Of a DNA stretch of 64,000 bases, positions 4,023-37,796 are shown piece by piece (positions within the stretch are counted from its first letter, which is position 1; every line of letters begins with the position of its first letter). The stretch is from Hydrolagus colliei (taxonomy: Eukaryota), in contig CM068742.1 in assembly GCA_035084275.1 (NCBI GenBank), forward strand, positions 135,842,001 through 135,906,000, given 5' to 3'. The position numbers and the translations under genes are program-made. The notes below the pieces were generated by a model. That model was given only the letters and a program-made list of their open reading frames with translations. It made no database searches and was not told where the DNA came from.

Positions 4023-4508
<486 letters not shown>

Positions 4509-7110: not shown

Positions 7111-7122
7111 TTTGTAACATAC

Positions 7123-11700: not shown

Positions 11701-13314
11701 TGAAAGTGCAAAAGAAAAGCTTCAGCCACTTTGCCCCTAACCTCTGGAATTCCATCCTGCAGTCCATTCGCCTCACCCACTCCTTCAAGTACCACCTCAA
11801 GACCCTCCTCTTCGACAGTCCCATCGGTCACTCAAAATCCCCTCCTTTTCCTCCACCCACCCCGATCCCAACCCCAGCTTAGGTCTGAAACATTGACTGT
11901 CCAGCGCCTTGGGACATCCTTCTGATGTGAAAGGCACTTTACAAATGTTTGTTTTTGTAACTTTCTTCAAATTGCTATGCTATTTTCACTCTCATCCTAG
12001 TCCAAAATCAGCCACCATTGTGAACTTTGCCTGTCTGTCTAAAGTAACTGTTAACTTGTGCAAACGTCATTATATCAATATTGCAGGGCCGCAGTTACTG
12101 GTAAGGCACTTTATGTATTGATGGCCTTCAGAGTTTAATCCCGTTGTGATGGGAGTACATACATGCTGAATTGATTGGTGTTGGCATAAAACGTAAGATT
12201 ACTATAGGTTCAGACACATAGTTCCCTTTGGACCCATCTTCAAAATGTTTACCCTGCGCATGACGCCACTCAAATGGTCGCATAATTGAGAATTTCCTGG
12301 GTATGATTGTCACTCTGCAAAATCTATGACAGTAGACAATAACAATCCTTGCATTTGATTCATAGAATTTTTTTTACGGCACAAAAGGAGGCCATTCGGC
12401 CCATCTAGTCTGTGCCGGCTCTTTGAAAAGAGCGATTCAATCCCACTGCCCTGTCCGCCCCCCATAGCCTAATATGTCTCAAACTCCCCCCTACCCACAC
12501 ACCCCCACCCCCCCCCCACCCCCACCAGCTCGAGTCTGAAACAGTGAGTGTCCAGCGCCTCGGGACGTGAGAGGCTCTGTCTGTACACGAGCAATGTTGT
12601 CGTCGTCGCCGTCATTAGTGCAGTACAGTCCGGCAGCAGGGTGGAGGTTAGAGCGCTCGGCTGGGGAAGGGTTCGAATCCCCGCTCATTCGAGCAAAACA
12701 CTCACTCGATACAACAGTTTATGTCTCAAAAGTGCTTCATGAGAAATACCGTGAAGTGCGGTGACTGTTTTCGGAACATGGCAGCCAACCTGCCCCACAA
12801 ACAGCCAGGAAGTGAATGGCCCATTTTATTTGGGAGGATTCTTGTCCACTGGCGACACCAAGAGCAGAAAAAAAAAAAAAAAAATCTCTCATGGAATAAA
12901 TGTGAAAACAAACAAAAAGGATCATCATTAAATGTTTGTGTTTGACGGTGAAAAGACGGGGGGGGAGTTGACGTTGACACGAACGTCAAGCATACTTTGC
13001 GCCTACTATAGGAAACAGTGTCAAAATAACTATAACAACAACAACAACAACAAAATCACATTTGTATCTGGTGCCTTTCATGTCGGGAGGATTGCTATAA
13101 GTAATGTGTTGTAGTTTAATTTAAACCTGTAAAGTGATTCCCTCCCCCCCCACCCCGCCCACACCCCCTTTTCCTTGAAGACCTTTTCTTACCCAGTTGC
13201 AAGAGCATCAAACCTAAATCTGGCCTCCCTGTTACCTGGGACCAGTCCACAGCTAGTATTGGGCTATTTTGGGGGCTATTTTTGGGGGTTGGGCTTTGGC
13301 CTATGTTTTAATGC

Positions 13315-13620
13315 CAGGGAGCCTCGAGCGCGGCACGTGGTCGCCGCGTTGTCCTAGCGACGGCAGGAAGGCGGTTGAGCCGTCGCGCCGAGGAGGAGCG
13401 ATCCAAGATGGCGGCCGTGGGAGTGGATCCGTCTCCAGCGTCGTGCGAGGCGCCCCCACTGCTGACAATCCTCCACTTCAACGATGTCTACGAGGTCCAG
13501 TCGCGTTCGGAGGAACCCGTGGGAGGCGCGGCCAGGTTACGATCTTAACTTTTTTTTAATTAAAAAAAAACGCATTAATAACCGCGGTAACAAATTTCGA
13601 AACGGTGCCGTTTTGTTCTT
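13315..13620 (+). promoter_or_regulatory. CpG-island promoter / exon 1 of the Nt5el-like gene
   Basis: Locally CpG-dense in an otherwise CpG-poor window; E-box CACGTG at 13334-13339; YY1 consensus CAAGATGGCGGC at 13404-13415 overlapping the ATG. Confidence 0.65.
13408..13535 (+). CDS. NT5EL: Nt5el-like 5'-nucleotidase (UshA/CD73 fold, CG11883-type), exon 1 of 8
   Basis: aagATGG start; MAAVGVDPSPASCEAPPLLTILHFNDVYEVQSRSEEPVGGAAR contains metallophosphoesterase motif I (HFNDVY) and GG.AR; donor AG|gttacg, phase 2. The symbol rests on recalled synteny (Rgs7bp-Nt5el-Rnf180 in mouse), not on a search. Confidence 0.85.
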
Positions 13621-15590
13621 GAGAATAAAACACCCCAAATCGGGGAGGGGGAGAGAGAGAGAGAGGGAGGGAGGGAGGGAGGGAGGGAAAGCGTCGCCTT
13701 CTCTGCCAGGGTCTGACTTGCCCCTTTGCACCGGAGTCCAGCGAAGATCAAACCCACCAGGGCCGTCAGTAGGTCAAATAATAACCAAATAATAATAATA
13801 ATAATAATACACGCGTTTGAAATTGTGCCTCATCACACGGTTGAGGCGACTCAAACCGCCACACAGGATATACTGAGAAGTGAGTTGACTTGTTTTTTTT
13901 TGGGTGAAACGTGGCAGCCAATTACGCACATCAGAGTCCCACCAACAAAATGTAGGACAAGATATAATTATTGTAAGGGTATGACCCCCCCCCCCCCCCC
14001 CCCCCAATAGATGCATTTAAATGCTGGGGGTACATTAATAACAGCCAATTACTTACATTAATGCATTCTCCAATTCTCAGAGGGCAGTTTATGGAGATGC
14101 ATAAGATATTTGATGAGGAAGTAAGCCAAAACTTGTAGATCCACTGAGAAAGAGCAAGACAACACAGGCTTAAGGCTTGCAGAAGGCAATTTTAAGTCAG
14201 AATTCAAGATATATTTTGTTGACCTAGTAATTAATGACTGAACCAGGTAACAGGAAAGGAGAGAGATTAGATTCATTTCAGAAACAATTTGATGGTTGGA
14301 TGGGTATTCTGGAAAAATGATATTAATCTGGTTGAAAGGTCTGCTTCATCTGTGGTTTCCTTGTAACAACAAAGGATATCACAGAGGAAATATTTCCTTA
14401 AATCACACCTATTAGTGTGCCAAAGTGTTACTTAACAGGAAGCAATGCTCTATAAGGGAGCTGTAACTTTCACATTAGTTTTTTTTCCCCCATGCATGTG
14501 AAGAACAATTTGTAATGGAGTTGTTGGGAAATGAATAAACCAAAATCATATTTACATAATTGCAACAACTACCTGTAGCAACACTAATAGGGGCATATGT
14601 TTTACTACCTACTACTTTTGGTACCTGCAACACACTTCATTCATATAGGCCCATAGATCCTTGTTTGCTGATGACATCTTACTTCTGAAGTAATTGGAAG
14701 ATCCAACTGCAAAAACGGTGCCAAGTAAGTTAACAGCTGGGAAAATTAAAAAAAATGTCATTACAATTTGCTGTCAACAAATTGTGAAAAAAGTGGCATA
14801 AGGCAATTTAATGTTTGAACATCTCCGATTCAATCCTCCCTTCTTGCTTCAACACTTCCTTGGCTGATACTTTATTTTTTCTTTCTCAATTGGTGGCCTT
14901 GAGTGGCCCAATTGTATTTGTGTGAATGATTTATTCATTCTGCTTCCTTTTTCTTGCAACTTTGTTGTGTTCATTGCCCTTAAAATGAAACATAGATATT
15001 TAAAGTTACCCCGTCCTCGCTCAACTCCTCTGGCTTCTCATCACATAAAAGATTCAATTCAGTATTCAGGTTCTCACCTTCAAAGCTCTCCATGGCCTTG
15101 GACCCCCCACCCACCCCTCCAACCTCCTAAACCCCCTACCAACCTTCCATTCCCTCTGCTCAGAGGGCTCTGGCTTGCCCCACACGTCCTGACCTACCCT
15201 CCCCACCTTCAGCCACTCTACCCCCAACCTTTGGAATTCCATCCCGAAGTCCCTCCACCTTGCCCCCTCCCTAGTCTCCTTCAAGTCCCTCCTCAAGACT
15301 ACTCTTCGACAGCCCCATCGATCACCCCAAATCCCCCCCTTTTCCTCCACCCTCCCTGTCCCCAGCTCGGGTCTGAAACAATGACTGTGCAGCACCTTGG
15401 CTCATTCTCCTGACATTGTTGTTGTTTATTCTTCTAAACTTTGAATATAGGAAATGCACTGTCCTCTTCTAGGCAATAAAGGAAAATTCGTAATTTCGTT
15501 GCTGCTATTTAATTTTGAAAATATGGTCTTTTAAACTTAGTCAAATAATGTATTGATGCTATGCATTGTGTTACTTTTTAAAAAAAACAG

Positions 15591-15742
15591 ATTTGCTACA
15601 GCATTACGACAATTTAATCAACAAGACCCCCTGATTCTTTTCAGTGGTGACTGTTTAAACCCCTCATTGTTAAGCACAACAACAAAAGGACAACACATGA
15701 TACCAATTCTTAATGCTTTTGGAGTACAGTGTGCAGTATTTG
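15591..15742 (+). CDS. NT5EL: Nt5el-like 5'-nucleotidase exon 2
   Basis: Acceptor aacag|; (R)FATALRQFNQQDPLILFSGDCLNPSLLSTTTKGQHMIPILNAFGVQCAVF(G) contains the GD motif; donor G|gtgagt; phases match exons 1 and 3. Confidence 0.9.
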
Positions 15743-17712
15743 GTGAGTAAATATTGAACAACTTATTTAATTTTATTATTCTAGTAGCAAACTAGAAGCT
15801 ATTTATGGATCCTACAAGGTCCACCAATGGTCTATTTTCTTACAGGATGATATTATTCGCACCTGATAGAATTGGATTCAAGTAGTGGATGGCAGAATCA
15901 ACATGGCACATCAATTGATGCATCATCAATAAAAAACACAACTATAATTTGTTTTATATCGGTTTTATAGGGAGAAAGAAGGTTGGGGGTGAAACTGCCT
16001 CACCAAATCCTCTGTCTAGATGTCTTTTGGTTTGGATGTCATGGATTGTTACATGAAGTTGACTCTTAGCACAAGGTCACTTATCCTGAGCAACCTATAG
16101 GGTGCTATATAAGTACAAGTTGTTTTGGCTGTTGTTAAAGTTTGGTCACGATGTCTTGGAAACTTGGGTTCATGTGCAAATTAATCATTTCATAATTACT
16201 GGGAAACTGACAATATTCATGTGGAAGGAATGTGGAAATGTGTTTTCTTTTTCCCTGGGTGGAATCTTATATTTAATCTTGCACAACTTGATGCAGTTGC
16301 TCATCAAACCTCTTGCCTTATGTGATGTTAAGTTTCTCTCATGGAAATACTTCTCTGTGCATTCAGTATGTAATCTTAATGAGATCTACTTGCCTTCAAT
16401 CAGCTTGATTTGATGGTGGTTCATCAAAATCCCTGTTTGTATACAATACTTGGAACAAAATTGGTTATTCTATCATTTATGCACAAATTGATGGAACGAC
16501 AATTTTTGTTTAAATGTAGATATGTGGAAGCTATTAGAATTCTGTTACTGCCTCACTTATGGTCGTACCAATGCTTTATAAAGTATTGGAGTCATAATGG
16601 GTTCATCATGAGGAATTTTAACACCCTAAAAGTTGAGTGGACAGATTAGTGACAACTGGGAGAAGGTTTGAAAGTACATTTTCACTGAGGCAATCATTGA
16701 TTGCTACTTGACACAATATGTAAAATAGGCAACTGGAGTAGCAGCTGTACTGGATTTAGAATTTAGTAATGCACAAGGTTGATTAATGACCTGGAAGTTC
16801 AGAAGCACCTGGGATCTAGTGGTTGTTGTATCATTATAGATTTGGTAAATCAAAAACAATATCAAGGTGCATGATTTTAGAGAGCAAATATGGAGCTATG
16901 AAATAGTAATATAAAAATAATCTGCATTTGATATAGTGCCTTATCATGTCGTTGAGATGTCTCCAAACGTTTTACTAAATATACTGAAAATTGTATTGAC
17001 TGTGTACTTTATGAGTGAAATGCAGCAGCAAATTGAGTACAACAGTTTCCCACAAACAATTGTGGATTGAGCGATCAAATTGTTTTGGGGGAGGGATCAA
17101 TATCCCTGGAAAGCAATTCGCCAATTGTTTAAACACCAGGTTCCTATTTACTGCAAGAATAATCTTAAATATTGGGGTTGATACAAAAACCGTTGACATT
17201 ATTTAATAGAAATGGGAAAGGTATGATTACATGTGGCAGCAAGAAGGATCCTAAAAAAATTTCAGGTTATATAAATACTGTGGTAGAATGTGAATGTTAC
17301 AGCATGCAGATCAATTAGGAATCAATTAAGTAAAAATTTGTAGATGAGTTAATGCCGAGTTAGTGATTGGATTTAGCCTCTGTTTACTTAGCAGTTCGTA
17401 CGAACCCACTTGTTAGTCAATTGGCGGATTGCTTTTCCAGGGATAATAATCTCTTAAAAAAAGTAATTAAAAAAAAATAACAATTTGGTTATTCAATCCA
17501 CAATTGTTTGTGTGACTCTTCTGTACGCTGTTGGCTGTCGTTTCGACTACAAAATATACAGTCTTTACAGTATACAAATATACAACTTTACAGTATAACC
17601 GTTGAAGCACTTTGAGACATCCTGAATACATGATATATCAAATGCAAGGGATTAACTTTTTGATTTTCGTATGCCAATACAGAAAATGTGAATAAGGAAA
17701 CTAGTACTAGTA

Positions 17713-18330
17713 CAGTAAAAGCCCTTTTATCCGATCAACCGTAACTTCCGTATAACCGGCACCTCAAAAAAAGGGCCCCATTTGATTAACCGGATCTGGC
17801 ACAATGTATCAGTATCAGTATTTTGGAATGCTGCTACTAGTGGTGCTGCCGTTTTTTTCCCTCACAGAGTACATTACGATTACTTCTTGAATGCTGCTGT
17901 AGTAGTGCTGTGTGTGTGTATGTGTGTGTGAAAGAGAGAGGGAAGGAGAGAGAGAGAGAGGGAGTGAGTTGATTAATTTAGATGGATAATTAGAGAAGTG
18001 GAGGGGGTTTGGGTTTGGAGCCATTGAGATGCCAGACTGACTGTGTGTGTGAAAGAGAGAGAGAAAGAGAATAAAAGGAGAGTACCACTTTGATTGTATG
18101 CTAGGTTTAAAGACTGTGATTGATATTTATTGCTTTATTGGTAAGTATCCATACAATATTCTGTTATTATTTAGTCTATTATTAATATGGTATGTTCTTT
18201 TAAAAATTATTTTAAAAGTTTATTAAAAAAAATTGGGGGGTTTGTTTTGTGCTTTTGGCTCAATATCCAAACTGCGCTTTAACCGGCATTGGCCAGGTCC
18301 CGAGGATGTTGGATAAACGGGCTTTTACTG
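17713..18330 (-). mobile_element. Non-autonomous Tc1/mariner (pogo/Tigger-like) MITE, copy 1
   Basis: TIRs cagtaaaagcccttttatcc / ggataaacgggcttttactg; TA on the left; internal sequence is the reverse complement of copies 2 and 3. Strand is relative only. Confidence 0.85.
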
Positions 18331-18429
18331 CATACGGAAGTTAGTAAAACAGCAAAATTACATTTATAGAGCGCCTTGCATGTTGGGAGGATGTCCCAAG
18401 GCGCTGAACAGTCAGGTCGGGACATATTA

Positions 18430-19053
18430 CAGTAACAGCCCGTTTATCCAGCACCCTCGGGACCTGGCCAATTGCCGTTAAAGAGTGTGCCGGATATTCG
18501 ACTGAAAACCCAACACATTTAAAAATAAAAAAAAATCTAATAATAGACCAAATAATAACAGAATATTGTATGGATACTTACCAATAAAGCAATAAATATC
18601 GATTACAGTCTATAAACAAAGTTTTTTTTCTTTCTCTCCCTCCTTCCCTCTCTCTCTTTCACACACACAAAGTCAGTCTAGCATCTCAATGGCTCCAAAC
18701 CCAATCCCCTCCACTCCTCATTTTCCATCTAAATTAATCAACTCCCCCACCCTCTCTCTACCCCACCCTCTCTCTCCCCCACCTCTCTCTCCTGCCCCCT
18801 CTTTCCCTCTCTTTCTCCCACCCTACCGCAGCATTCAAAAGTAATCGTACTGTACTCGCTGTGAGGGAAGAAAATGGCAGTGCCACCTTCAGGCACTAGT
18901 AGCAGCATACCGAAATACTGATACTGTACAAGAGAAAAAAAATGTGATTGTGCCAGACAAGACCTGATTAATCGAATATGGACCTTTTTTTTTGAGGTGC
19001 CAGTTATACGGAAGTTACGGTTGATCGGGTCACGGATAAATGGACTTTTACTG
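18430..19053 (+). mobile_element. Same MITE family, copy 2
   Basis: TA|cagtaacagcccgtttatcc ... ggataaatggacttttactg|TA. Confidence 0.88.
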
Positions 19054-21542
19054 TACATACTACAGATGTTGTGCAAAGATCTAAGGGTTTAAATGTTTAC
19101 AAGACACCTCGGCCTGAGGTTCAAACAATGACAACAACGAGGAGATTAGTGCTGTTCTGGGTATTACTTTGGGAGTTTAATTTACAGTACATTACAGTAC
19201 ATTGATAATGGGAGAGAAGCAAATATTATTCCACTGTTAAAGATGAGTAAAGCACAGATTTGGAAATTACATTAATTAAAACATTAACAATGCTGAACGA
19301 ATAAATGGAATCATTTGAGAACATAAACGGGATGTAACCAGAGATCATCTGAAGACAATTGATGTAAGGAACATTTGGCATGATTTTGAAGCAGTTGTTG
19401 ATGTCTGACATTTACTGGAATTTTACGAGGCGGTAAATTAAGATAATGGTTGAGTGCTATTCAACTGATGGTTTAATTGGATTCTCAGAAGTAAGTTGAC
19501 AAATACCTTCAAGTGTGGAAGGGTTAAGGCTCACGGAATAGATATCAAATTATTCAGACTGATTGAAAAGTAGTGCAGCAGTAGGAGACAAGGATGGACT
19601 TCTTCAAGGTTATGTTCTGCGTGACCTTTTCTAAAGCTCTGTCAGTTGTTTGGCAGAGGATGTCTGCAGAGAGTATTATCACATTTGTCTATGGTAAAAG
19701 TTTTTTTGGCAAGTAAAAGAGAGGTTAGGATTCATAAGTGGATGAGCTGAGAAATGGCATATTGTCATATTGCCAGTGGATAAATGAAATTTAATGCAGA
19801 TAGAAAGAGGAAATGGTTAAAAAAAACAAGGTTATCTATCAGGATGTTATTATTGAAACCATGATGGCATATAATAAATCTGAAATGGTTGTCAACAGGC
19901 AAATGGATCAATTAGTGTGATGATTTTGTACTATAAATTAGAATGTGAATGTTAATGGGTATATGTCAGGGTGATCCAATCTGTTGGCTGCTGAGGGCCG
20001 GATGTTAGATTTGAGAAACGTCCACGGATTACATAACCAATATATTTGTGTTTCCCTTCCTGAATGTAATCTGTAAGAATCACATAGAAATAGTTTGTTT
20101 TATGCAGTGTAACTATATATTTAATTTCACTTTATTTTAGTTGCAATGCAAACTTTAAGCAATTGATATAAATTTAAAAATAATGATCCAGTTAGTTAGA
20201 AAACAAGAGTTTTCTTGAACTCTGAAAGAAAGAGTTAAGTGAATTAAAATGCACATAATTTAATATGTTTAACAATGAGCAAAATAATGATGATCTCAAA
20301 TGGAAATAATTTTATGTTTTAAAATCAAAATACTAGATATCAACTCAGCATGAGAGGTGTGAGATGGGTTAGGCAGGAGAGAGGAGAGGAGCCAATTTTT
20401 AGGTAGTCATGTTTGCATTGATGTCACTTTATTATGACATCGAGATGTCCCAAAGCACTTTGTAGGGTTTTACTATGAAATATAGTTAATGAGCAGAACA
20501 ATCTAATTTTTGTTCTTGGCAAAGCCATTACCACACATTGTCTGAATAATTCATTTCATTCTTCATCAATCCCACCTTGCAATAAGGAAGCCTTTTGGCT
20601 CAATGATGGAGCCTTTTACAAGGTTTGCTGCTGCCTCTTGAGCACCTTTTAAGTATGTTTCTGTTGACCAGCTGCAGTTCTTGTACCTTGTTCAAACATT
20701 ATTGCTTGGACCTGACAGCATGGACCTGACATTGCCTTTGTTATGTCAGTTTTGGAAACCGAAGACTGTAGCCCCACAACAAGCAAAGTTCTAATGTTAA
20801 ATGCCACCACTGTAGAGGATATTTTTGAAACATGCCAACCCTGTCTTGGAATTGTGAGAACACAGCTTTATTGGTTAAAGATAAAGTGAGCTAACATTTT
20901 AAGTGTGATCTTTTGCCAATCCCTATTATGTGGAGATACTCAAGGGATCAATGATTCACATGATTTTTATTTCTAACGTTTTGATTCTTAGCCCAACATG
21001 AAAATTAATACCTTAACCCAACATAATTGTTTTTTTAAAGAAAATACTGTATAAAGGTAGGTAAATATTTAAAAGTACATTTTCAACTGAATTATGTGGA
21101 CAGTCTATTGAATATCCAGCAATATTAACTAAAAATAATAATCCTTGGATTTGATATAGTGCGTTTCACGTCTTCTAGACATCTCAAAGTGTTTCACAGA
21201 ATATACTGTAAAGTGAATTGACTTTATATTTGCAGTGGACACATGGCAGCCAAGGGTGCACAGCAGTGTCCAACAAACAGTCGTGGATTGAAATGAGCAA
21301 TTTATTATTTTTTGGGGGAGGGATTATTATTAGGCGTGTGGAGTAAGGAAACTTGCCCAAGGTTTCGCTCTGATCTGCCTGAATAAAACTATTCACTTTG
21401 CATATGACTTATTTTCCCATTGCTTACAAACTTTGATATTAATGTAAAGATTATGGAATTTATTTCTGTTCTATTGATGAGCTGTTGATACTCTGTTGAT
21501 ATATTTTTGAAAATTTCAGAGACCTAATTTTTTCAATTATAG

Positions 21543-22126
21543 GAAATCATGAATTTGACTTTGGAGTTGATCTGCTAGAAGAATCTGCATCACTGATGAA
21601 TTTCCCTTGGTTGCTCAGCAATGTATTTGACTTATTTACTTTGCGGCCATTAGGACATGGTTTGGAGAACAGGATAATTGAATGGAATGGTGTAAAAGTG
21701 GGCCTAATAGGATTAGTGGAAGAAGAATGGCTTGATACCTTACCAACTGTTGATAAGTCAAATGTGAATTACATTGATTATGTTCGTGTTGCTGACCAAC
21801 TTTCCAAAGAACTTCGAGTCAAAGGAGCAGAACTTGTGATCGCTTTGACGCACATGAAATGGAGTAATGATATAAGACTTGCAAAGCACTCCGAGGGATT
21901 GGATTTGGTGCTTGGAGGCCACGATCATGACTATGACATCAAAGAGGTTAATGGAATTCTTATTGTGAAAAGTGGATCCGATTTTAGAACTCTAACTAAA
22001 ATTGACATTGTAAGAACTCCCGTAAAGAGTTTCAAATACACAACGCAGAAGATAGTTATTACAAAAGATGTGGAAGAAGATGATTTTGTGAAAAGCATTG
22101 TCCAAGAGTTTACCTTCAATCTTGAG
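21543..22126 (+). CDS. NT5EL: Nt5el-like 5'-nucleotidase exon 3
   Basis: Acceptor ttatag|; GNHEFDFG...FPWLLSN...LVIALTHM...LVLGGHDH...KSGSDF contains the GNHE, H and GHxH metal-binding motifs; donor GAG|gtacgt. Confidence 0.95.
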
Positions 22127-22434
22127 GTACGTTAGTAACAATTTTAAGTATCAGTTGTATCCTTTCTTCCCACTGTTTTAACCTAATAAAAAAGGTTAGA
22201 AATTTAACACCAAGTTATGATTTAGTTTTATAATGAAACTTGTTGCTTTTTGGATTAATTGAAAACATTATAAGTAAATAAATCTGTCATGGCTCAGTGG
22301 CTCAAACTATCAGGAATTTGTAGCGAAAAATGAAAACATTCCTATTTTAATAAATGTTTTAAATAAACATGTTTTAATACCTTCTTAACAATATTAGAAA
22401 GCTTCACTGGAGTGGTACAGTTTGACATTGAGTA

Positions 22435-23043
22435 CTGGTATCCCTCCCCAACCGCGGGCAATATGTTCCTGAAAACCTCCGCGGTTAGTAAAACCGCGGT
22501 TGGAAAATGCAGGGCCCTATGGGAAACATGGGGATAGGGGGAGTAAGTTTGCTTGTCCTTGAACTAAACACCAAAAAATTCATGTTATTTACCTAAATCC
22601 TAATGATGATGATGATGGGGGAGGTGCTTGTTGCGTGCTGTTACAAGGAACAGGGGCCCTACGCTTCCTCTGCCTCCTCCTCCAGGTCATAAATCACCGA
22701 TGAGTGCGAGGTGGGTGGATGTGGAGAAGGTGGTGTGGTGGGTGACACCGAGGTGGGTGGATGTGGATGGAGAAGGTGATGTGGTGGGTGACACCGAGGG
22801 GGTGGATATGGATGGAGAAGGTGGAGTGGCGGGGGACACGGAAGGGGGTAGATGCGGAGAAGCGACATCGTGGCTGGTTGATTGCGACATCGCAACTGAG
22901 TCCTAGTGCCAAACGCTAGTGTTAGTGTTAAAACCTATGGATACACAAAACCCATTGCCATGGTTGGCAAGGGTCGTCACAGCGAGCCAACCGTCGATAA
23001 GTGAAATTTGCGGTAGAAAAAAACGGTTGGGGTGTGGTACCTG
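22435..23043. mobile_element. Second non-autonomous Tigger-like DNA transposon with an internal tandem repeat
   Basis: TA|ctggtatccctccccaaccg ... cggttggggtgtggtacctg|TA imperfect TIRs; internal ~45-bp tandem units at ~22710-22860. Confidence 0.7.
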
Positions 23044-25858
23044 TAATTCTGCAATGTGCTTGTTTAAGGGGAAGTCATATTAACCATGCACATTGTGAAA
23101 GGTTACCAAATCAGAATCTTTGCACTTGATATTAAGCTTTACCAGATCTCAATATCCCAAAGTGCTTAATAGGAGTTTAATATAAAGTTCACTGACTATT
23201 TGTAGGCAAAATGTGCCAAGTACCTGTATCCAGAAGTCAGTGACCAATTTTACTTGGAGAGTGGCCAGAATATCGGAAGATGTCCCTTTTCCTTCAAAAA
23301 GAAATTTGAATAAAATTCAAGATGCAACTTTGCTTTGATATGTTTAACTTCAAGCTCATTCTTAAGAGGTGCATCATAGTTTAAGATAAAGCCTGCTTTC
23401 CTGTCTCACCACCTTCAAAAACTTGCCGAAATATATTTTCTTTTGATTGTGCTTTCAGTCACCTTTCTCCCTACTCCCTCAGCTCCTCTCCATGCAGGGT
23501 AATGGAGGCAGATCATGAAGCGGGACATTATCTGTAGGCGCTGTATTTTGTTGTAATTAATTATACCCCACAGAATCTATGGTAAGCAACTAAATAGTTC
23601 ACCAAAACAAAATCTTTGAATATTCTTGAGTTTAGAGGATTGAGTGGTGATTTGATAGAGGTTTTTAGGATGATAAAGGGATTTGATAAGGTAGACAAAG
23701 AAGCTATTTCCTCTGGTGAGGGAATACAAAACAAGGGGACATCGTCTTAAAATTAGAACCAGGCCATTTAAGAGTGAAATTAGGAAGCATTTTTTCACTC
23801 AAAGGGTGGCAGAAATATGGAATTCTCTACCTCAAAAGGTTGTGGATGCTAGATCCATCTGGACCTTCAAGAGTGAGGTTGGTACATTTTTGGTAGGTCA
23901 ACAACAAAGTTACAGTTGTAGAGCGCCTTTCATCCCAAGGATGTCCCAAGGCATTGGGGAAGAGAGAGGTGACCACAGATGCAGTCGACAGCATAGCACC
24001 ACTATCTAGCACCCATATAAATATAGCATCCATATAAATATAGCATTGCAATGATTATCTTTCATTTGGTTTGATTATGCAGTGACTTTGAAAATTTCAC
24101 TTGAGCATTTAATTGTGAGCTCAGTTGACTCTTAAATCACTTGGATTATCATCAGCGTATAGCCCAAATTGTTAATTAAAATCAAATCCATTTGGAACTG
24201 GAATGAGAAATTAAGTTTGTTTTTATCTTTAAATATACAGTAATGCAAATAAGGATTAACTGTCAAATAGTATTATCCTGTAATTAAGATTGTATTTATT
24301 AGCAAATGGGTGTCAATTAATTGAGTTGTTCTTGAAGCATCAAAGGATTTAATGAATTAAGTCCAATGGGAATGATCACTAACATCAATGTGTTAATACC
24401 ATGATATGAAAGGGAAAGATAAGAATATATTTTAAAATTATACTCTACAAATTTTGTTTCCAACCTAAGAATTTTGAATGATCCAAATATTTAGTTACAT
24501 TGCTGTACATATTATCCCTTTGTGTTATGGAAGAACATATTTACAGTGCGTGTCATGTTATAAATCTGGATTTGTGACATATACTCTTGGCCTTGGTATC
24601 CATGTTGATTGGTATGCAGAGAGGTAAGTAGCTGTTGCACGAATTCTGCAATTCTAAACTGTTTGTTTAATGTGTCTGAGCTGTTGACAGGGGAATGGTG
24701 GCAATATCCTTGGAGTTGCCAGCTATAATATGATATACAATACTTGGCAACAGCCTGTTGGAATTGAGTCAGCCTTCTGTGGTGGTCTCATAACTCTATT
24801 TCCTGAGCCAGGTGGGTCAACAGTACTCCAAGGCATTGCTGTTAGCAAAGTAGCCAACTCAGCTCATCATTCAAAATTTGGAGTGACAGAATCCCAGATT
24901 ATCGATTAGAATGGGAATTCTTCCCACTTGGCTCTTGATAACCTTGCAAACCAAAGCCCAAATGAGTCAAGTGGTCAAGCAGAGAATAACTTACCTGAGT
25001 GTTCTCAATGACAAGCTAGGTAACTTTAGTTGTTTAAATTCCAGCAATACACCAACCCACACTGGGGGCTAGCAAGCCTTGGCTCTAACCAATGTGCACG
25101 TAATATTTATTGAATATTTCTATGTGTGGGTTGTATACATACATGGAATTCTATCCACTTTTACATATTGTAACAAAGTTTACGTCTCAGACAAACCAGC
25201 TGATCAAAAAATTGTAAACATCCTTATCAATTATGTGATTCTGTCACTATGGATTTATGGTGAAGTGCATTGGATCAAATGGATAGAAGGCCCTATAAAC
25301 TGGTCATGTAGGAAATCTGAAATAACTATTCAAAAAGATGCAAGTGAAATCCTTTTTATCTGTTTTTTATGGTGTTTTTATATTTTCTTAACTACTTTGG
25401 GTATATAGGATCATATTGTTCATGCTGGTTATTTTTATATTGTTTTTGAAAAAACTAAATAATAAATCCATAATGGAAGTTGTTCTTGAAGCATCAAAGG
25501 ATTTAATGAATTAAGTCCAATTAAAATTATGTTAAATCAGCTGATTCCTGAATACTATCTGTGACTGATGTTAAATATTCTTGGAAAAAATCTTAAGTAA
25601 AATTTCACTAAAGAGACTACTGAGTGCACACCTGAAAAGTTGTTGTAAGTGTTACATTTATTAAATGAATCAATTCAGAACCATTGGCATTGTCTTGAAA
25701 ACCAACATAAATATTTTCCCCTACTATTGTTTATTTCATACTTTCTATCAATAATAAAATTGAAGTAAACTTGTTTTTTTGAATACTCATTAACAATAAA
25801 TGACATAAGGAACAACTATCTAAATTTGCTATAAATAGACTTTGTTTTATTTCTCCAG

Positions 25859-26006
25859 CATCAATTCGCAGAAGTGCTCTGTCAAATAGATGTAGAATTG
25901 GATGGACGCTTTGCCACCGTGCGAAAATCAGAGAGTAGTTTAGGAAATCTCGTTACAAATGCAATGTTGGAAGCTACTCATGCTGATGTGGCATTGCTTA
26001 ATTCAG
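25859..26006 (+). CDS. NT5EL: Nt5el-like 5'-nucleotidase exon 4
   Basis: Acceptor ttctccag|; HQFAEVLCQIDVELDGRFATVRKSESSLGNLVTNAMLEATHADVALLNS(G), the start of the 5'-nucleotidase C-terminal domain; donor G|gtatat. Confidence 0.92.
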
Positions 26007-26139
26007 GTATATTCTAATTCATCTTGTTTACAATATTAAATTATATGCTAAATTAGCGCATTTCTAAAAAGAAGTCACTTAAGATAAGATTTGCAGGGTT
26101 GTTAGTGTGTTGTTACCTTTTATTACCTTGCATATTATT

Positions 26140-26730
26140 CTGCCATTCCCTCACCCCTCAGGTTGCCGAAACCCTCATCCAGTCATTCATTACATCTAGG
26201 CTTGACATCACATCCCTGCTTGTTGCTTTCCCAACTCTTTACTTCACAAGTTGCAGATCATCCAGAACTCTGCAGCTTGTGTCCTCTCCCACACCAGGCT
26301 CTGTGACACCATCATCTTAACCTTGCCCACCTCCACTAGCTCCCCACCTCGCAGAAGATAGAATTCAAAATCCTCATCCTTGCCTTCAAAGCCCTCCAAG
26401 GCTTTACTCCTTCCTACCTCTCCGATTTACTGACCCCATATCAAACTGTCCACTCACTCCACTCAGCAGGATGCATCCTGCTCCATGTCCCCCCCATCTG
26501 ACCCACTCCACCAAGCCCTTCAGCCTTTCTGCCCCCGCCCTTTGGAACTCCATCCCACATTCCCTTTGCCTCACTCCCCTTACCTCCTTCAAGGAGTGTT
26601 TCAAAACCCTCCTCTTCGACCGCGCCTTCAGCTGCCCTCTACCTTCTCCGATCCTAAGTACAAATCCCTAACTGTTCAGCCCTTGGGAAATCTTGAAAGG
26701 CGCTGTACAAATGTTATTTTGTTGGTTTTG
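26140..26730 (+). mobile_element. L2 3' fragment
   Basis: LTPQVAETLIQSFITSRLD; FSLSAPALWNSIP; L2 tail. Confidence 0.85.
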
Positions 26731-27415
26731 TTAGTACTGTGTGTAAGAGGCCAGAGTGGGAGACATCACACACTGCTATTTTAAATTTTAAATCTCCGTT
26801 CATCACACACTGTCTATCAGGAATTAGACAAATTAATGATCCTCCTCACTATTATTAAGTACATCATGTTGATCTATGTAATGCAGCTATCTGATTTGTA
26901 ATTTATTGTTGGATTTTAATTTCTTAAACTAAATCTGAATTCGGAGTCTTAAGTGGACACTCACCCATTACCAATATTTTGGCTGCAGTTGAATTTGCAG
27001 CAGTAGTGCTTTTGCGATTCATTTTCACTACATTAAGTCTTACCGGAGTCTGGGTATCCGGAATTTGTATAATGCTGATCAGGACTGAAATGGAAATTTT
27101 AAAAATGTTTCTTAGGCCCCTGTGTTTGTAGACTCTCACTGGCTCAACTCTCCTAGCCCGCATCCCTGCATCACCATTCCATTGGCCTTCAGAGGCTAGG
27201 GATATCGACTTACACTGATAAAACAAAATTTATTCACTGTGCTACTTATTCACTACCTTCTACTCACAGGATTCATCTTATCCCACCCCTGCAGATGTTT
27301 TTGGTAAATATTATGAGTGGATTCAAAGTAAATTAGATCAGCTTGATGGCGGAAATGATGCAACTATAAGAGGAAAACAATTTGGAAATGGATCTAAACA
27401 TTTTTAAATTCTTAG

Positions 27416-27581
27416 GTACACTACGCTCAGATCGCTTACACCCACCAGGTGATTTTACCATGCACGATCTTTTGTTGCTTCTACCTATTGTCGATCCACT
27501 TCTGGTGGTCCAGGTGACAGCTCAACAGTTATTGGAAGCTTTAGAAAATGGAGTCAGCATGTATCCAGAACCTGATGGAAG
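27416..27581 (+). CDS. NT5EL: Nt5el-like 5'-nucleotidase exon 5
   Basis: Acceptor ttcttag|; (G)TLRSDRLHPPGDFTMHDLLLLLPIVDPLLVVQVTAQQLLEALENGVSMYPEPDG(R); donor AG|gtaaca. Confidence 0.92.
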
Positions 27582-27931
27582 GTAACATTTATTGAGTCTT
27601 TCCTGTTCTAGATTTAGACAGTTGAAACAGTAATTTTAACAAAATGGTCCAACTAGTAGTTGACCTGAAAATCCCCCATTAGAATAATCCTAAATTTGAT
27701 TCACAGTCTGTGTTGAATCAGCTGTGCTAAGCCTGTTCTATGGGGACACAACAACTGAAGTGAGCGCCCATGTTAGTGTGGAGTGAAATCAGGCAAGGTT
27801 TATAAATATTGCATAAGAACATAAGAATATGGAGCAGAAGTAGGCCATTCGGCCCCTCGAGCCTGCCCCGCCATTTAATAAAATCATGCCTGATCTTCTA
27901 TTCTATCTCCACCTGCCCGCCTTATCCTCAT

Positions 27932-28870
27932 ACAACAACAACAACAAAATTACATTTATAGAGCGCCTAGAACGTCAGGAGGACATCCCAAAGAGCTGAA
28001 CAGTCAGGTCGGGACCCAAGCACGGGAGGAAGGGTCGGGATAGGGGGAAGGGAAAGGAGAGTAGGAGAGGTGGAAGAGTTAGGAGGGGAGCAGAAGGCAC
28101 GGACAAAGAGGCAGGTCTTGAGACCGGCCTTGAAAGAGGAAAGAGGAAGTGAGGCAAAGGGATTGCGGGATGGAGTTCCACAGTTTGGGAGCAGAGAGGC
28201 TGAAAGCTCGGCCACCGATGGTTGGGCGGTGGATGCGGAGCAGGCCAGAGCCTGCTGAGCAGAGGGGACGGGCAGGCTGATAGGGAGACAGCAGGTCGGA
28301 GAGATAGGAGGGGGCAAGGCCGTGAACGGCCTTGAAGGTGAGGACAAGGATCTTGAATTCGATCCTCTGGGGGATGGGGAGCCAGTGGAGACGGGCGTGG
28401 GTGGGAATGATGTGGTCGTGGAGCCTGGTGCGGAAGAGTACACGAGCTGCAGAGTTCTGAATGATCTGCAGGCTGTGAAGGGAGGAGCTAGGAAGGTCGA
28501 CGAGGAGAGAGTTCCCGTAATCCAACCTGGAAGTGATAAAGGGGTGGATAAGAATTTCGGCGAAATGGGGAGTGAGGTAGTGGCGGAGTCTGGCAATATT
28601 GTGGAGGTGGTGGAAGGCTGTACCAGTCATGGAGCGGATATAAGGGAGGAAGGACAGTTCGGGGTCAAACAAGACTCCCAGATTCCTGACTGGCTTTGAG
28701 AGGTGGAGAGAGCAGCCTTGGATACTGATGTTGTCAGCTCCTGAGGTGTGGAGGCGCTGACGCGAGCCAATCAGGAGGGCCTCCATCTTGTTGACATTGA
28801 GCTGGAGGAAATTGGCCCTCGTCCAGGATTCAATGTCGGACAGACACGCAGTCAGAACGCCAGTAGTCCT
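27932..28870 (-). mobile_element. 5'-truncated L2 LINE (post-RT region and 3' tail)
   Basis: VRNLGVLFD...SRLDYGNSLL...LHWLPIPQRIEFKIL...GGRAFS; (TTG)n tail. Confidence 0.93.
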
Positions 28871-30061
28871 GGAGTCTTACCTAAGACACATACCGGGCAC
28901 CTGCATGTGTGGTCACAGGTAAGGACAGTACTGAGCTCAGGTAAAGTGGTCCCATAAATAGCCTGTTATCACATGAATTGTCATATGGGTAAGCGCCCCA
29001 GGTATGTGAGAGAGAAATAAGCCATGGTTCCTACACACAATTCTTATCTAGCAGTTTTTGTCTATTGTGATTGCTCATTGAAAGTTTTCGGTCATTCTTA
29101 AGCTGCTGTTAAAGCTTACCAAGTACTGTAATAGGTTGTATAACCTAACCTTAAGGCTAACTGCCATTTGGTTGTAAATTGAAAGAAATTATTCTAATCT
29201 TAACTAAATCTTTAAGGGGGGAATTCTGGTTGTGTTAAATTTGTGTATTTAGGAACACCTGTGCTGTATACACACTCCGAAGATTGTCCAGCACCTTGGG
29301 ATGTCTTCCCGACATGAAAGGCATTATACAAATAAAATGTTGTTGTTGTTATTGTGTATGTAAGCTTTATTCATAATAAAGAAATGAATAACTACATCTA
29401 CAATATAATTGCATGCCTGCCTCTGTCTCATTCTTTGTTTGAGGCATTTTGTTGACTGGGAGAATTGAATTCCATCATCTTCCTTGTAACTATCACTGAC
29501 TTCTGTACCTTTTCTCTCTAACCTCTTTCTTCCCCTGTGTATATTTTGTTCCCACTTGAAGTTGATGACAAATCTGCCTTCTTTGCCTCCTGAGTAGTTA
29601 TTCCATATATTCAATTTCTCTCTGTATTTAAATAATTAAAACTGAACTATATGTTCACTTTCCCTCTTTTGAACCCTTGTGTATTTTAAACCCTTTGTAT
29701 TTGACCAATAGGCTATTGGAGTTCACTTTATCTAACTTTTAGGATCTTGAGTATTTGAATAATATTTCCCCTGAGATGTTTCTTTATCCATTCCTAGCCT
29801 CTGTAGCCTCTAATTATATCCCAGGAAATTATATCTTGTGAGATATTTCTGTTAATTGAAACTTTTTTTGGCAAGGCATGAAAAAAACGTATCATGAAAA
29901 GCTTTTGATGTCAGTATTGGAGGAGGTTATTCTGCTCATTTTAGTTTGCTAAATATAACCAATTTATCAATTTTTTTATGTTTGGTGTGTTTCTCTTCAC
30001 ATTTATAAATCACTGATAGAATATTTACAATTGAAATTTTTATTAATTATTTATAAACATA

Positions 30062-30550
30062 GACAACAACAACAACTTTGATTTATATAGCGCTCTCCAC
30101 GCCGGACAGTGTCTCAGAGCGCTTCACAATAACGGAACCCGGTCCCGAGCCAGTGGGACGGGGAAAAGGGTGACCGAAGGCACAGTCGAAAAGAAAGATC
30201 TTCAGCTGAGACCTGAAACTAAGAAGAGAGGGGGCCAGGTGAAGGGAGTGAGGAAGGGAGTTCCAGAGCTTCGGGGTAGTGGCTGAAGGCACGGCCGCCG
30301 ATAGTGGAGCGGAGGATTCGGGGGACAACGAGGAGATCAGAACTGGAGGAGCGAAGGCAGTGTTGGGGAGAGAGGAGGTCAGAGAGGTAGGGGGGTGCAG
30401 AAGAGTGGAGAGATTTGAAAACAAGGGTGAGGATCTTGAAATCGATCGTCTCCGGGACAGAGAGCCAGTGAAGTCTGGCAAGGATTGGGGTAATCGGGGA
30501 GCAAAGATTGGTGCAGGTGAGAACGTGGGCGGCAGAGTTCTGAATGAGCT
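30062..30550 (-). mobile_element. L2 3' fragment of a different subfamily
   Basis: IQNSAAHVL...LHWLSVPETIDFKIL; tail stem differs (agcgctctgagacactgtccggcgtggagagcgct). Confidence 0.85.
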
Positions 30551-32046
30551 GGATAGACAAATAAACTAAACATAGCAAGCGATGCAGTTTTGTCGAGTAC
30601 ACATTGACCTCTTATGTAAATTATCAAATGAATAGAATAAACCCCATTGCAATTGATATAACTGTTTACCATCATTTTTTGTATGTTCCATTCATTATCT
30701 GATTATCTGTATTTAATGAGAATATGAGATGGAGACCTACATTAATACAGTGTGCTTATTAACCTGAGAAAACACATGGTCATCGCTATTTCCAAAAGCT
30801 ATTTGAAATCTGTACTAATTTTTTTTTAAATTTGGCACACTAAGTATTCTTAGGTGTTACAAAGCTATTCAATCAGTCCATCATATTGTGCTGAATGGTA
30901 GTGCTGAATTGCTGCATTTCATTCACTCTGTCCATTCTGCGAACTTTGTAGATGTACGTAGAAAATATTCCTTCAAAATTCATGTCGTTTTTCTTACCAT
31001 AATTTTTACATCCTCATTCATTCTGCATAGCAATGTATAATAATAATAATAAATCATTCATTGTGGACTCAAATAACTGGTTTAGCCATCTAATAGTATT
31101 TTTCCGTGCCAATTTGGTTGTGTTTTGTGGATTCTAATAAACCATTTTATTGATTAGAATTTAAGCATTATGTAGGCAAATCAGCAAGCTGAAATATTGA
31201 GGCAATAAACTACTTTATTTAATACAGGGGAACCTGCATTACAACACCCTTCAATATACACTGCCCTTTGCCTGTATGTGTCTCTCTTGCATCTACACAT
31301 CCATACACATTGAATAAATTTAATTTATAACATGCTTTTACCTTGATATTGTTTCAAACTTATATCATTTTCTTCAAATATCGAATCTAATATTAGTGAT
31401 GTCAATTTCATATGTACACACCATTGTTCTAGTCTGTTAACAATAGTTTGTTTATATTCATATAGATTTGACTGGAACAATCTCATGTTATAGCTATGAC
31501 TATGTATCTTTCATAAGCAGGGGAACTGGGGTCTTCTCGAACTGAATTGACTCCCAAGGTGACATGTTTGGCAATAATACTGTTCAATGATACTGTCCAC
31601 CAGCTTTTCTACTGCTTGTCGAGCTAGGACCACCCTATCAGGGCTTTAGCTTGAAGCCAAGGCTTGGGGACCACAGATTGTGTATTGAGGTTTGCTATGT
31701 GGTTTTAGCTGACTAGATTCTAACAAATCTCCAAGAAGGTCCCCAAGAATTGGCTTTTGACAGTCTCCCCTTAATACTGTAAGGAATTAGATAAACAGGA
31801 TACTTCCCTCCAGAGAGAGAGAGCACATTACATTCCAATACATGGGAATTTCCATGTGTAGGTAGGATGCAAGCAATTCTGGTTGGTTTGGATATACTTA
31901 AGCATGGTGATGGATTACACGTGTGTCAGAAACTCAGCTAATCGAAATAAAACATTTTGTATTAAAATATATGAATTAAAAAAAAATAGTTTATTACAAT
32001 ATCCATTTGAATGTTTAAAAGTGAATTCTGTTTGCAACTTTTAAAG

Positions 32047-32194
32047 GTTTCCTCAGGTGGCAGGGTTAGAGTTTGGATTTGACCCAAGTGCACAACCAGG
32101 CCATAGGATTGTTGCAGACTCGGTGAAGATACAGGGACAGTACCCAGACTCCAATAGAATCTACTTACTTGCAATTAAAGAATATCTAGCAAAA
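32047..32194 (+). CDS. NT5EL: Nt5el-like 5'-nucleotidase exon 6
   Basis: Acceptor ttttaaag|; (R)FPQVAGLEFGFDPSAQPGHRIVADSVKIQGQYPDSNRIYLLAIKEYLAK; donor AAA|gtaagc. Confidence 0.92.
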
Positions 32195-32429
32195 GTAAGC
32201 TGCAATTATATACCATTTATTGTTTTAGAGAAAAGTCCAATTATGGTTTGTGTGCTTAAAAAATATATGATTTTAAGTATGATTTAAACTTTTAAATATT
32301 AATCCATGCTTAGAACTTTAATTGGGTTATAAAGCTATTACACCAAAAAAAATGCAGTACTAAACACAATTAACCCTTTCTGAACTGGCCGTTTATTAAT
32401 CTGCATTGGCCAGCCTAGCACATTTGGTA

Positions 32430-32800
32430 ATTCTTGTTTTCAGTCAGAAGGTTGTGAGCTGAAGCCCCATATCAGGATTTGAGCTCAGAGTTTGGATTGC
32501 CCCTCTAGTGCAGGTGGAAATGTAGTCCTTCATTTGAGACAGTAAACTGGGGACCTGTCTGTCATTCGGGCGGTTATTAAAAATCCAAAGGAGGTATTTA
32601 ACAAAATAAGAATGTAGTTTTTCCTTGTGTTCTTGTCAACAATCCTCTGGAAACAGAGGATTTTTTATGGGATGTAATTGCTGTACTTAAATTGTTTGTA
32701 GTGCACCCTGAGAAAAATAGTCATTTTATTCATAGTCAAGAAAAGTGTAAGGTTTGAGGTGTTCTGATGATGTGATAAAGAGCTTTACTAAATGCAAGGG
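32430..32800 (+). mobile_element. Old DeuSINE (SacSINE1/AmnSINE-like) copy; relatives at ~36270-36430 and ~46500-46750
   Basis: tcagaaggttgtg...ttgagc...ctagtgcag...gtcct...gagac.gtaaactgg Deu-domain-like blocks shared among the three sites. Confidence 0.6.
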
Positions 32801-35800: not shown

Positions 35801-35945
35801 GGGAAGGGAAGAGCAAACTGCTGACACTGCAATACAATTTGACAATATAAATGAAACATGTTTTGGTTCATAGTTTACATTGTAGTGACGTGATAATCCA
35901 CAGTTTTCTTATTCACAATGAACAAACTCGTTTTTGTTTGTTTAG

Positions 35946-36129
35946 GGCAAGGATGGTTATGTGATGCTCCAGAATTGTCATTGGCTGATTGATACAGAAA
36001 CTGCCCCCAGTCTCTCCAGTGTTGTCATTAACCATTTTGAATCAGTAAAAATTGTTCAGGGGCTGAAGAAATGTAAATCAGGACATCGGATGAGCTTAAT
36101 CAAGATCTCCAAATCTGCATCTGTCACAG
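35946..36129 (+). CDS. NT5EL: Nt5el-like 5'-nucleotidase exon 7
   Basis: Acceptor tgtttag|; GKDGYVMLQNCHWLIDTETAPSLSSVVINHFESVKIVQGLKKCKSGHRMSLIKISKSASVT contains the GxDGY/F motif; donor G|gtatat. Confidence 0.9.
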
Positions 36130-37389
36130 GTATATATTCTCTCTATGTGCTCTGAGTTTTGTTAAATTTTAGTTTGTCAAGTTAAAGTTATTCTGCCTAG
36201 ATTTAATGATGCCATTAATTTAATGATGAACCTTTGATTTACACACATAACCTGTGCAGTGTTTCAGATTGACTCAGTTGAGTCAGACATGGATTTGAGC
36301 CTCACTCAGGGTTTGAGAGCACACAATTTAAAGTAACAAACTAACACATTACTAGGAGGAATACTGCATTATTGGAGGTGTTGTCCTTCCAAAGAGATGT
36401 TAAACTGAAGAGCAATCTATGTGTTTGGTAGACATTAATCACACAAAGCTCCCTGCACTTATTTTATCATAATCCTCACCAACTCTAGATCCGACCTGGT
36501 TAGAAAGTCACTTTTTGATGAATCTTCTGAAGTTGAGGAATTTTATACTTGTTATTTATTATGAATAATATTCCTTCAATTTTAAGGAATTCCTTCACTT
36601 CCTTCAAGTGCCATAATGTCGTAAAGCACTTTACATAATTTTATTGTAAAGTGTAATGACTATGCATTTGCAGGCAAACACAGCTGCTGGTTTGAATACA
36701 GCAATGTCCTACAAACAGCTAAGAAGCAAGTGACCGATTTGATTTGATGTGCGTGTTGGTCTGGACTCCAATCATACCAGAGAGGGTAGGAAGGTGGCTG
36801 AAGGCAGAGTTGAAGAGGACTTGAGGCATGCCTTGAAGGAGTCAAGGGAGGGGAGTGAAGTGATAGGAAGGTGGGGGCAGAAAGGCTGAAACCCCGACCG
36901 CCAATGATGGGTCAGAATGGGCAAGGGACATGGAGCAGGCTGGAGTCTGCTGAGGGGAGGGAGAAGACAGGTTGATACAGGGTTAGCAGGTCAGATATGT
37001 AGGTGGGTGCAAGGCTTTAGAGGGTCTTGACAGTGAGGACAAGGATTTTGAACTCAATGTATTATTTTAGTTAATAATCTGCTATAGGTATATTGGAAGA
37101 GAAAGTCTCACAGAGAGAGATAACGGCACATAGAGAGAAGGACTAGTACAATATGATATTACAGTGACACTATAACTCCTGTTACGAGAATATTTTGGTT
37201 AGCCAATTTCTAATTCAGTGATGACCAATCATCTGCACTGACTGATTCCTTATCTGTAATGCAGATGGGCCTAAATATGGGTGGTCCTATGGATAGTTCT
37301 CTATTGTAGAATGATAATCTGTCTACTTATCGAGTAGAGAAATTTCAGGCTATGTTTTCTTAAGATGATAATTGATTTTTATTAATCAG

Positions 37390-37586
37390 CAGATTTTGAA
37401 CAGAAAACAGATGATACATTTGCAGTTGCTGCTGTCCCTGATGTGGAAGGAAGAATATATCATGTAACTGAGGAAATGAAACAGCATCTCAGTCAACTAC
37501 GATGTGCACGAGAACAAGGCCAAAGAACATTTCCATTGGGTTTATCTAATGCCGACGATTCTCTTGATTGTGATTTAAAGCGATAA
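37390..37586 (+). CDS. NT5EL: Nt5el-like 5'-nucleotidase exon 8 (terminal)
   Basis: NAGNAG acceptor (cag|cag); (A)DFEQKTDDTFAVAAVPDVEGRIYHVTEEMKQHLSQLRCAREQGQRTFPLGLSNADDSLDCDLKR* contains the family C-terminal PxVEGRI motif. The eight exons sum to 1707 nt (568 aa + stop) with all phases consistent. Confidence 0.85.
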
Positions 37587-37790: not shown

Positions 37791-37796
37791 AATAAA
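37791..37796 (+). promoter_or_regulatory. Candidate polyadenylation signal of the Nt5el-like gene
   Basis: AATAAA ~205 nt after the stop codon, followed by T-rich sequence. Confidence 0.5.

Follow-up and report, generated by a model that had tools for sequence, protein, structure and literature searches.

An intact nucleotidase gene of Hydrolagus colliei from an old, apparently unassayed subfamily related to CD73

CD73, the product of NT5E, is a drug target, and a mouse gene of related sequence is filed as "ecto-like". A gene of this kind lies on the + strand of the window analysed here, a stretch of 64,000 nucleotides from Hydrolagus colliei (GenBank assembly GCA_035084275.1, contig CM068742.1, positions 135,842,001 to 135,906,000, forward strand), and it raises the question where its product works and on what substrate. 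The locus is a member of an already catalogued, apparently unassayed subfamily, and the evidence says that this subfamily is older than animals, carries no export signals and has a pocket different from that of CD73. The reading we favour, with a probability of roughly 0.55, is that the protein would act, by analogy with its characterized relatives, as a cytosolic two-metal 5'-ribonucleotide phosphatase, likely preferring a base other than adenine.

Gene structure, family and location in the cell

The nucleotidase gene is intact and single-copy in this genome. All eight exons have AG/GT ends and join in phase to a coding sequence of 1707 bases, encoding 568 residues and one terminal stop, as the original prediction had read it (Table 1). 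The last acceptor is a tandem NAGNAG, usable at 37390 or 37393, and since the elephant-shark RefSeq model is one residue shorter here, a protein of 567 residues is equally possible. Upstream of the start in exon 1 lies an in-frame stop, with no earlier ATG in that frame, and the start region matches that of the elephant-shark RefSeq protein. The CpG-rich stretch over this exon has a GC content of 0.55 and an observed/expected CpG ratio of 0.97, compared with 0.33 in 14000-20000. A whole-genome search with the elephant-shark protein returned eight matches, all in the window and corresponding to the eight exons. The predicted motifs are present on the + strand at DVY 26-28, GGHDH 218-222, VRKSES 309, LNSGTLR 335, LPI 360 and KDGY 444. 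After the C-domain core, exon 7 also encodes a basic loop (483-493) with conserved Cys485, Ser487, His489 and Arg490, the His occurring in 98/120 and the Arg in 94/120 homologues.

No sequencing run recorded as RNA was found; transcript evidence consisted of four contig sets, labelled "RNA?", of a related organism, aligned to 12400-32300 (exons 1 to 6). Among the rows listed, one contig of run X1 joins exon 2 directly to exon 3, and one of run X2 joins exon 3 directly to exon 4; both runs belong to one study. Among the listed exon differences to the related organism, 20 of 26 are synonymous, and the 18 listed of 20 differences in exon 3 (12 synonymous, 6 non-synonymous; 124 synonymous and 458 non-synonymous sites) yield a ratio of non-synonymous to synonymous differences per site (pN/pS) of about 0.14. 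A pseudogene was rejected on the strength of the open frame and this purifying selection. In intron 2, a short repeat (21150-21380) reaches the very high contig depth of 100,000-259,000 in runs X1-X3 and is likely an abundant short interspersed nuclear element.

The window protein is 96.1% identical (545/567) to elephant-shark XP_042187717.1, 64.3% (362/563) to mouse NP_080027.1 and 31.4% (155/494) to a shark NT5E. The mouse protein (Q9D3Z8, LOC66763) is what we take to be Nt5el. Both orthologues share the motifs of the window protein, differ from it at the species level only and are annotated predictions for which no assay was found. Single exons match the Pfam domains Metallophos and 5_nucleotid_C far beyond chance, and P0173 scores 48 and 120 bits against cut-offs of 21.5 and 23.6, respectively. 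Exon 3 encodes the greater part of the metallophosphoesterase domain; used as query, it retrieved 296 proteins at E <=1e-10 from 1300 candidates, and the 120 listed come from sharks, bony fish, reptiles, mammals, tunicates, echinoderms, corals, molluscs, arthropods and green algae. A prokaryote genome scan added 547 relatives among 602 pattern hits, of which the best 80 were used. None of six nucleotidase proteins tested against NCBIfam, two of them bacterial, reached any family cut-off, all 14 matches lying far below, and an atlas search returned same-family clusters only.

Is the gene, then, a duplicate of NT5E? Unrooted trees were built by quick search from 63 rows (LG+G4) and from 61 rows (mixture model; one duplicate and one long branch left out), with support from the Shimodaira-Hasegawa-like approximate likelihood ratio test (SH-aLRT). 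The window protein falls within a clade of all 15 vertebrate rows, including the mouse and elephant-shark proteins (100% SH-aLRT), which is nested in a eukaryote clade of 31 rows (100%) that also contains the insect members (Anopheles, Agrilus); none of the proteins returned bore the name CG11883. The eukaryote clade falls among bacterial homologues with a DxY motif I, and together these Tyr-type enzymes are split from NT5E and the His-type enzymes (99 and 97 SH-aLRT). Forcing the vertebrate clade together with NT5E was rejected by the approximately unbiased (AU) test (p-AU 5.5e-06), and on tree and test together an NT5E duplicate was rejected, in agreement with the original prediction. The genome's other 5_nucleotid_C locus, on contig C3, is a separate and typical NT5E gene, whose product has a hydrophobic leader and carries His at motif I as well as GGHTN and LPF.

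The signals for export and membrane anchoring that characterize NT5E, a signal peptide and a glycosylphosphatidylinositol (GPI) tail, are both not seen in the window protein, as had been predicted: in a hydropathy scan its start is not hydrophobic enough for a leader (best 11-residue mean 0.71), nor is its end for a GPI tail (0.01). Of 120 eukaryote homologues, 95 have both a Met start and motif I; the same 11-residue scan detected a hydrophobic leader in 0/95 of these, many of which lack the room for one before motif I, and in 70/73 of the bacterial proteins scored (of 80). Nineteen of the 95 eukaryote homologues begin with Met-Gly and have a Cys within four residues, a start characteristic of proteins lipid-anchored at the cytosolic face, and echinoderm and coral members carry C-terminal ankyrin repeats. 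The combination of a Met-Gly-Cys-type start with C-terminal ankyrin occurs in the echinoderm and coral proteins P0052-P0056, P0060, P0062-P0064, P0074 and others. These sequence features point, indirectly but consistently, to the cytosol, and the protein is predicted to work inside the cell.

The active site and its two layers of change

An AlphaFold model was made of the shark orthologue P0002 (83% identical) from 96 sequences. Its mean predicted local distance difference test score (pLDDT) is 89.4 and its predicted template modelling score (pTM) 0.88, and confidence drops only towards the ends and within 500-514. Foldseek and VIA-align comparisons of the P0002 model rank 5'-nucleotidases first (Z 33-34), with a lower root-mean-square deviation (rmsd) to open forms; against open CD73 (4h1y), Z is 33.6 and rmsd 4.1 over 465 aligned residues. 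The window protein is thus predicted to adopt the two-domain CD73/UshA fold with a hinge helix, and the original prediction of this fold gains support from the model and its structure matches. The Metallophos plus 5_nucleotid_C architecture is shared with the top sequence and fold matches, Escherichia coli UshA, Thermus 5'-nucleotidase 2Z1A, YfkN/CpdB and SoxB, which, in contrast to the location predicted for the window protein, are exported and, in the alignments printed for the top solved matches, have His at motif I. Among these printed alignments, which cover part of the matches, no solved structure has Tyr at motif I.

Column counts over 55 vertebrate, 67 other eukaryote, 80 bacterial and 40 NT5E rows separate two layers of change. 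The first layer, common to eukaryotes and bacteria, comprises Tyr28, Pro67, Ser68, Asp/Glu221, His222 and Lys236. Tyr28, in place of CD73 His38, is found in 42/55 vertebrate, 63/67 other eukaryote (four gaps) and 71/80 bacterial rows, while His222, which turns the GGHSN/GGHTN of CD73 into GGHDH, is found in 54/55, 67/67 and 79/80 rows, respectively, as opposed to Asn in 40/40 NT5E rows. Bacterial His222 was partly selected for, because the scan patterns included the GHDH motif; Tyr28 was in no prokaryote scan pattern. At motif I, Asp replaces Tyr/His in five of the 80 bacterial rows, all alphaproteobacterial (L021, L022, L028, L050 and L077). Asn95 and His96 are present in 53/55 vertebrate, 66/67 other eukaryote and 79/80 bacterial rows, the remainder being gaps.

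The second layer is confined to eukaryotes and consists of Glu153, Trp156, Met198-Lys/Arg199, Phe241, Ile/Met/Leu362, Asp364, Lys437 and Lys444. Asp364 occupies 49/55 vertebrate and 64/67 other eukaryote rows (113/122), Lys437 46/48 and 62/63 of the rows with the motif (108/111), and Lys444 46/55 and 52/67. At position 362 the homologues have Ile, Met, Leu or Phe, the last of these still in 13/120. Bacterial DxY homologues (e.g., L013, L024 and L009) share Tyr28, His222, Pro67, Ser68 and Lys236, yet differ in their leaders and keep the usual pocket, with Phe362 in 75/80, Asn364 in 68/80 and Gly444 in 67/80 rows; in NT5E, these positions hold Phe362 in 39/40 and Gly444 in 40/40 rows. Among the positions examined, none is vertebrate-specific, and the pocket changes of the window protein also occur in algae and invertebrates. 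The view that the remodelled site is an ancestral jawed-vertebrate trait, as originally proposed, is therefore not supported, given the Tyr28 counts outside vertebrates.

How much of the substrate site of CD73 is left? In CD73, according to the accessible text of PMC8677862, the base is stacked by Phe417 and Phe500, while the ribose is bound by Asn390 and Asp506 and the phosphate by Arg354 and Arg395. The alignment with chain 4h1y, at a constant offset of 3, equates CD73 Asn390, Arg395, Phe417, Phe500 and Asp506 with Asn336, Arg341, Ile362, Tyr439 and Asp445, and Arg354 pairs with Arg310. Five of the six substrate contacts are thus kept, as are the catalytic His-Asp pair and the second-metal ligands; only Phe417 is changed, and the Phe417/Phe500 clamp of NT5E gives way to Ile362 and Tyr439. 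Beside it, Gly419, Pro498 and Gly505 of CD73 are replaced by Asp, Lys and Lys. Tyr439 is present in 43/48 vertebrate and 62/63 other eukaryote rows with the motif, and Tyr at the Phe500-equivalent also occurs in 73/79 fish and shark NT5E rows. Regarding the claimed loss of both stacking aromatics, the change of Phe417 to Ile362 stands, but the second aromatic is retained: it had been sought in KDGY (GDGF of CD73), while Phe500 corresponds to Tyr439, six places earlier, and the Asp445 of KDGY corresponds to the ribose ligand Asp506.

Mechanism, substrate and competing explanations

Domain rotation and a division of labour between the domains are described for 5'-nucleotidases in the available parts of PMC8475336, PMC8071527 and PMC13229355. 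If the cycle resembles that of CD73 and UshA, the C-terminal domain would bind the substrate in the open state, its phosphate held by Arg310 and Arg341, its ribose by Asn336 and Asp445, and its base resting against Tyr439. The domains would then close and a metal-bound water would attack the phosphate, assisted by the His96-Asp99 pair. One metal would keep the usual ligands Asp63, Asn95, His197 and His220; the other metal would be coordinated by Asp26, Asp63 and His222, Tyr28 taking the position of the missing His; His38 and its partners in CD73 presumably serve as metal ligands. The second stacking face would be aliphatic (Ile362) and flanked by the new charges Asp364, Lys437 and Lys444, and a small, polar or modified base of the pyrimidine or nicotinamide type would therefore be the most likely cargo. 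As ribose and phosphate contacts are intact, a ribonucleotide is favoured over a plain sugar-phosphate.

Several points weigh against the favoured phosphatase. No enzyme data for any subfamily member were found in the literature searched; a study on the fly genes that is cited by PMC9738970 may contain an assay of CG11883. The bacterial neighbourhoods (2036 open frames at 80 loci, clustered) held no neighbour hinting at a pathway, the largest recurring ones, a tetratricopeptide-repeat protein and a short-chain dehydrogenase/reductase enzyme at 13 loci each, being confined to one acidobacterial group. Exon 1 is not among the contig-supported rows listed, and the positions assigned to Tyr28, Asp364, Lys437 and Lys444 around the metals and the base derive from alignments. 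Finally, CD73 touches the base with hardly any side chain and takes pyrimidines as well as purines (PMC8677862, accessible text), so one changed aromatic need not exclude adenosine monophosphate (AMP).

The last point leads to an ordinary, broad 5'-nucleotidase, AMP included, that works inside the cell. The five kept contacts, the variation at position 362 and the observation that CD73 reads the base mostly by stacking (PMC8677862, accessible text) would all suit such an enzyme. We nevertheless regard it as unlikely, since the fixed Asp364 and Lys437, as against Gly/Asn and Pro/Asn in CD73-type enzymes, point to selection for a different pocket. Moreover, cells already contain other AMP nucleotidases.

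A more far-reaching proposal, quite unlikely in our judgement, concerns the metal site. The iron site of purple acid phosphatases consists of an Asp, a bridging Asp, the second His of GHxH and a Tyr, and this set would be matched here if Tyr28 bound iron as a tyrosinate: a purple-acid-phosphatase-like site would then have arisen independently in the CD73 fold, and eukaryotes would use it to clear one non-adenine nucleotide in the cytosol, with the enzyme kept from algae to mice and lost at least six times in vertebrates, humans likely included. Hints in this direction are that Tyr28 is fixed from bacteria to mammals, that the bacterial rows deviating to Asp (5/80) retain an oxygen donor, and that His222 completes an Asp-Asp-His-Tyr set. 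Purple acid phosphatases differ in that their Tyr stems from motif II rather than motif I, and in that they lack a nucleotidase C-domain.

Distinctly unlikely is a pyrophosphatase or phosphodiesterase for larger nucleotides such as nicotinamide adenine dinucleotide (NAD), adenosine diphosphate-ribose, uridine diphosphate-sugars, cytidine diphosphate-alcohols or 2',3'-cyclic nucleotides, although UshA and CpdB, of the same fold, have such activities (PMC8071527 and PMC8475336, accessible text). The eukaryote clade adds the basic residues Lys/Arg199, Lys236, Arg393, Lys437 and Lys444 near both halves of the site. His222 also restores a GHxH motif, which is found in many diesterases. On the other hand, the cyclic phosphodiesterase models of NCBIfam score lowest of the 14 (29-45 bits, far below cut-off), and the C-domain retains a 5'-nucleotidase layout.

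The lean of the original prediction towards a non-nucleotide sugar-phosphate has been weakened, and as lead substrate it was rejected as very unlikely. The loss of one stacking aromatic would be in keeping with it, as would the label "mannosylglucosyl-3-phosphoglycerate phosphatase-like" on many homologues; however, other labels within the same clusters are YfkN-like, snake-venom 5'-nucleotidase-like and NAD 5'-nucleotidase-like, so that the labels are best-hit names, and the Petrotoga enzyme behind the first one is putative and tentatively described in the available part of PMC3736172. The ribose ligands Asn336 and Asp445 are kept together with Tyr439, which also speaks against it. An inactive scaffold, with one metal site abolished because Tyr28 stands where CD73 presumably has a first-shell His, can practically be dismissed, as the remaining metal and catalytic residues are the same throughout, in bacterial as in mammalian homologues, and the same Tyr occurs in 71/80 bacterial homologues, most of which have signal peptides.

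Genomic neighbourhood, vertebrate distribution and meaning

The nucleotidase gene lies between two genes on the opposite strand (Table 1). As had been predicted, RNF180 is one of these neighbours, and the other is presumably RGS7BP, with two exons at 7276-7123 and from 4190 downward and a weak Syntaxin_2 match, below cut-off, as the sole support from profile searches. Its first coding exon (7123-7276, -) measures 154 bases from ATG to donor, one over whole codons, and the frame differs before and after an early run of 7 A, which is most likely an assembly slip in the homopolymer. The first intron of this gene contains a long simple tandem repeat (4977-5610) that is open in several frames. Inside RNF180, an open stretch of 236 codons (60805-61512, -) with a reverse-transcriptase-like YADD motif is a fragment of a long interspersed nuclear element, and similar fragments occur in introns of the nucleotidase gene. 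In mouse, Nt5el presumably lies between Rgs7bp and Rnf180 likewise, and we assume that the corresponding human locus holds a pseudogene.

Table 1. Exons of the nucleotidase gene and other features of the window
Feature	Position	Strand	Residues	Content
Exon 1	13408..13535	+	1-43	Start codon, short hydrophilic leader, motif I: Asp26, Tyr28
Exon 2	15591..15742	+	43-94	Motif II, Asp63, family Pro67-Ser68
Exon 3	21543..22126	+	94-288	Asn95, His96, Asp99, His197, His220, His222
Exon 4	25859..26006	+	289-338	End of hinge, Arg310, Asn336
Exon 5	27416..27581	+	338-393	Arg341, Ile362 (CD73 Phe417), Asp364 (CD73 Gly419)
Exon 6	32047..32194	+	393-442	Lys437, Glu438, Tyr439 (CD73 Phe500)
Exon 7	35946..36129	+	443-504	Lys444, Asp445 (CD73 Asp506), conserved basic Cys/His loop 483-493
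Exon 8, coding part	37390..37586	+	504-568	Tandem acceptor, hydrophilic tail, stop
CpG-rich stretch, likely promoter	13200..13800	.		Over exon 1
First AATAAA 3' of the stop, candidate polyadenylation signal	37791..37796	+		
RNF180 last exons (RING exon and RNF180_C exons)	54321..57890	-		Converging on the nucleotidase gene
RGS7BP-like gene, first two coding exons	4023..7276	-		Diverging from the nucleotidase gene

When the full-length mouse protein served as query, 120 of 1150 matches were listed, of which the first 44 rows and four later ones are vertebrate; members are named for 27 of these 48 vertebrate clusters, four large ones in part (15 each of 48, 29, 26 and 21). Holders among the members listed are cartilaginous fish, gar, eels, herrings, suckers, salmonids, smelts, squirrelfish and alfonsinos, furthermore coelacanth, lungfish, newts, tuatara, geckos, skinks and turtles, and among mammals monotremes, marsupials, afrotherians, rodents, lagomorphs, tree shrew and lemurs. 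No orthologue from monkeys or apes, laurasiatherians, birds, crocodilians, snakes, iguanians, frogs or percomorphs was found among the listed members of these protein lists. The patchy presence expected from the original prediction is therefore borne out: several vertebrate groups, likely including humans, seem to lack the gene, and the absences from protein lists suggest repeated loss. The porcupine orthologue P0039 carries the flag "LOW QUALITY PROTEIN" in its source record, which may mean that the gene is being lost there as well. Overall, the original prediction is partly supported, holding for identity and location, and not for age or the sugar-phosphate lean.

No functional study of Nt5el, CG11883, 4933425L06Rik or MPP_CG11883 (cd07406) was found in a search that mostly left subscription journals outside. 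In the accessible text of PMC10969083 and of bioRxiv 10.1101/2022.05.27.493404, Nt5el appears as a list entry only, and the fly is described as having five homologous genes, two of them GPI-linked (PMC9738970, accessible text). Since the gene is already catalogued, the value of the finding lies in the function and not in the locus. If a cytosolic nucleotidase is indeed present in mice and rabbits and absent in humans, this would constitute a difference in nucleotide metabolism between model animals and people, and its repeated loss offers a co-loss test for the pathway in which it may act.

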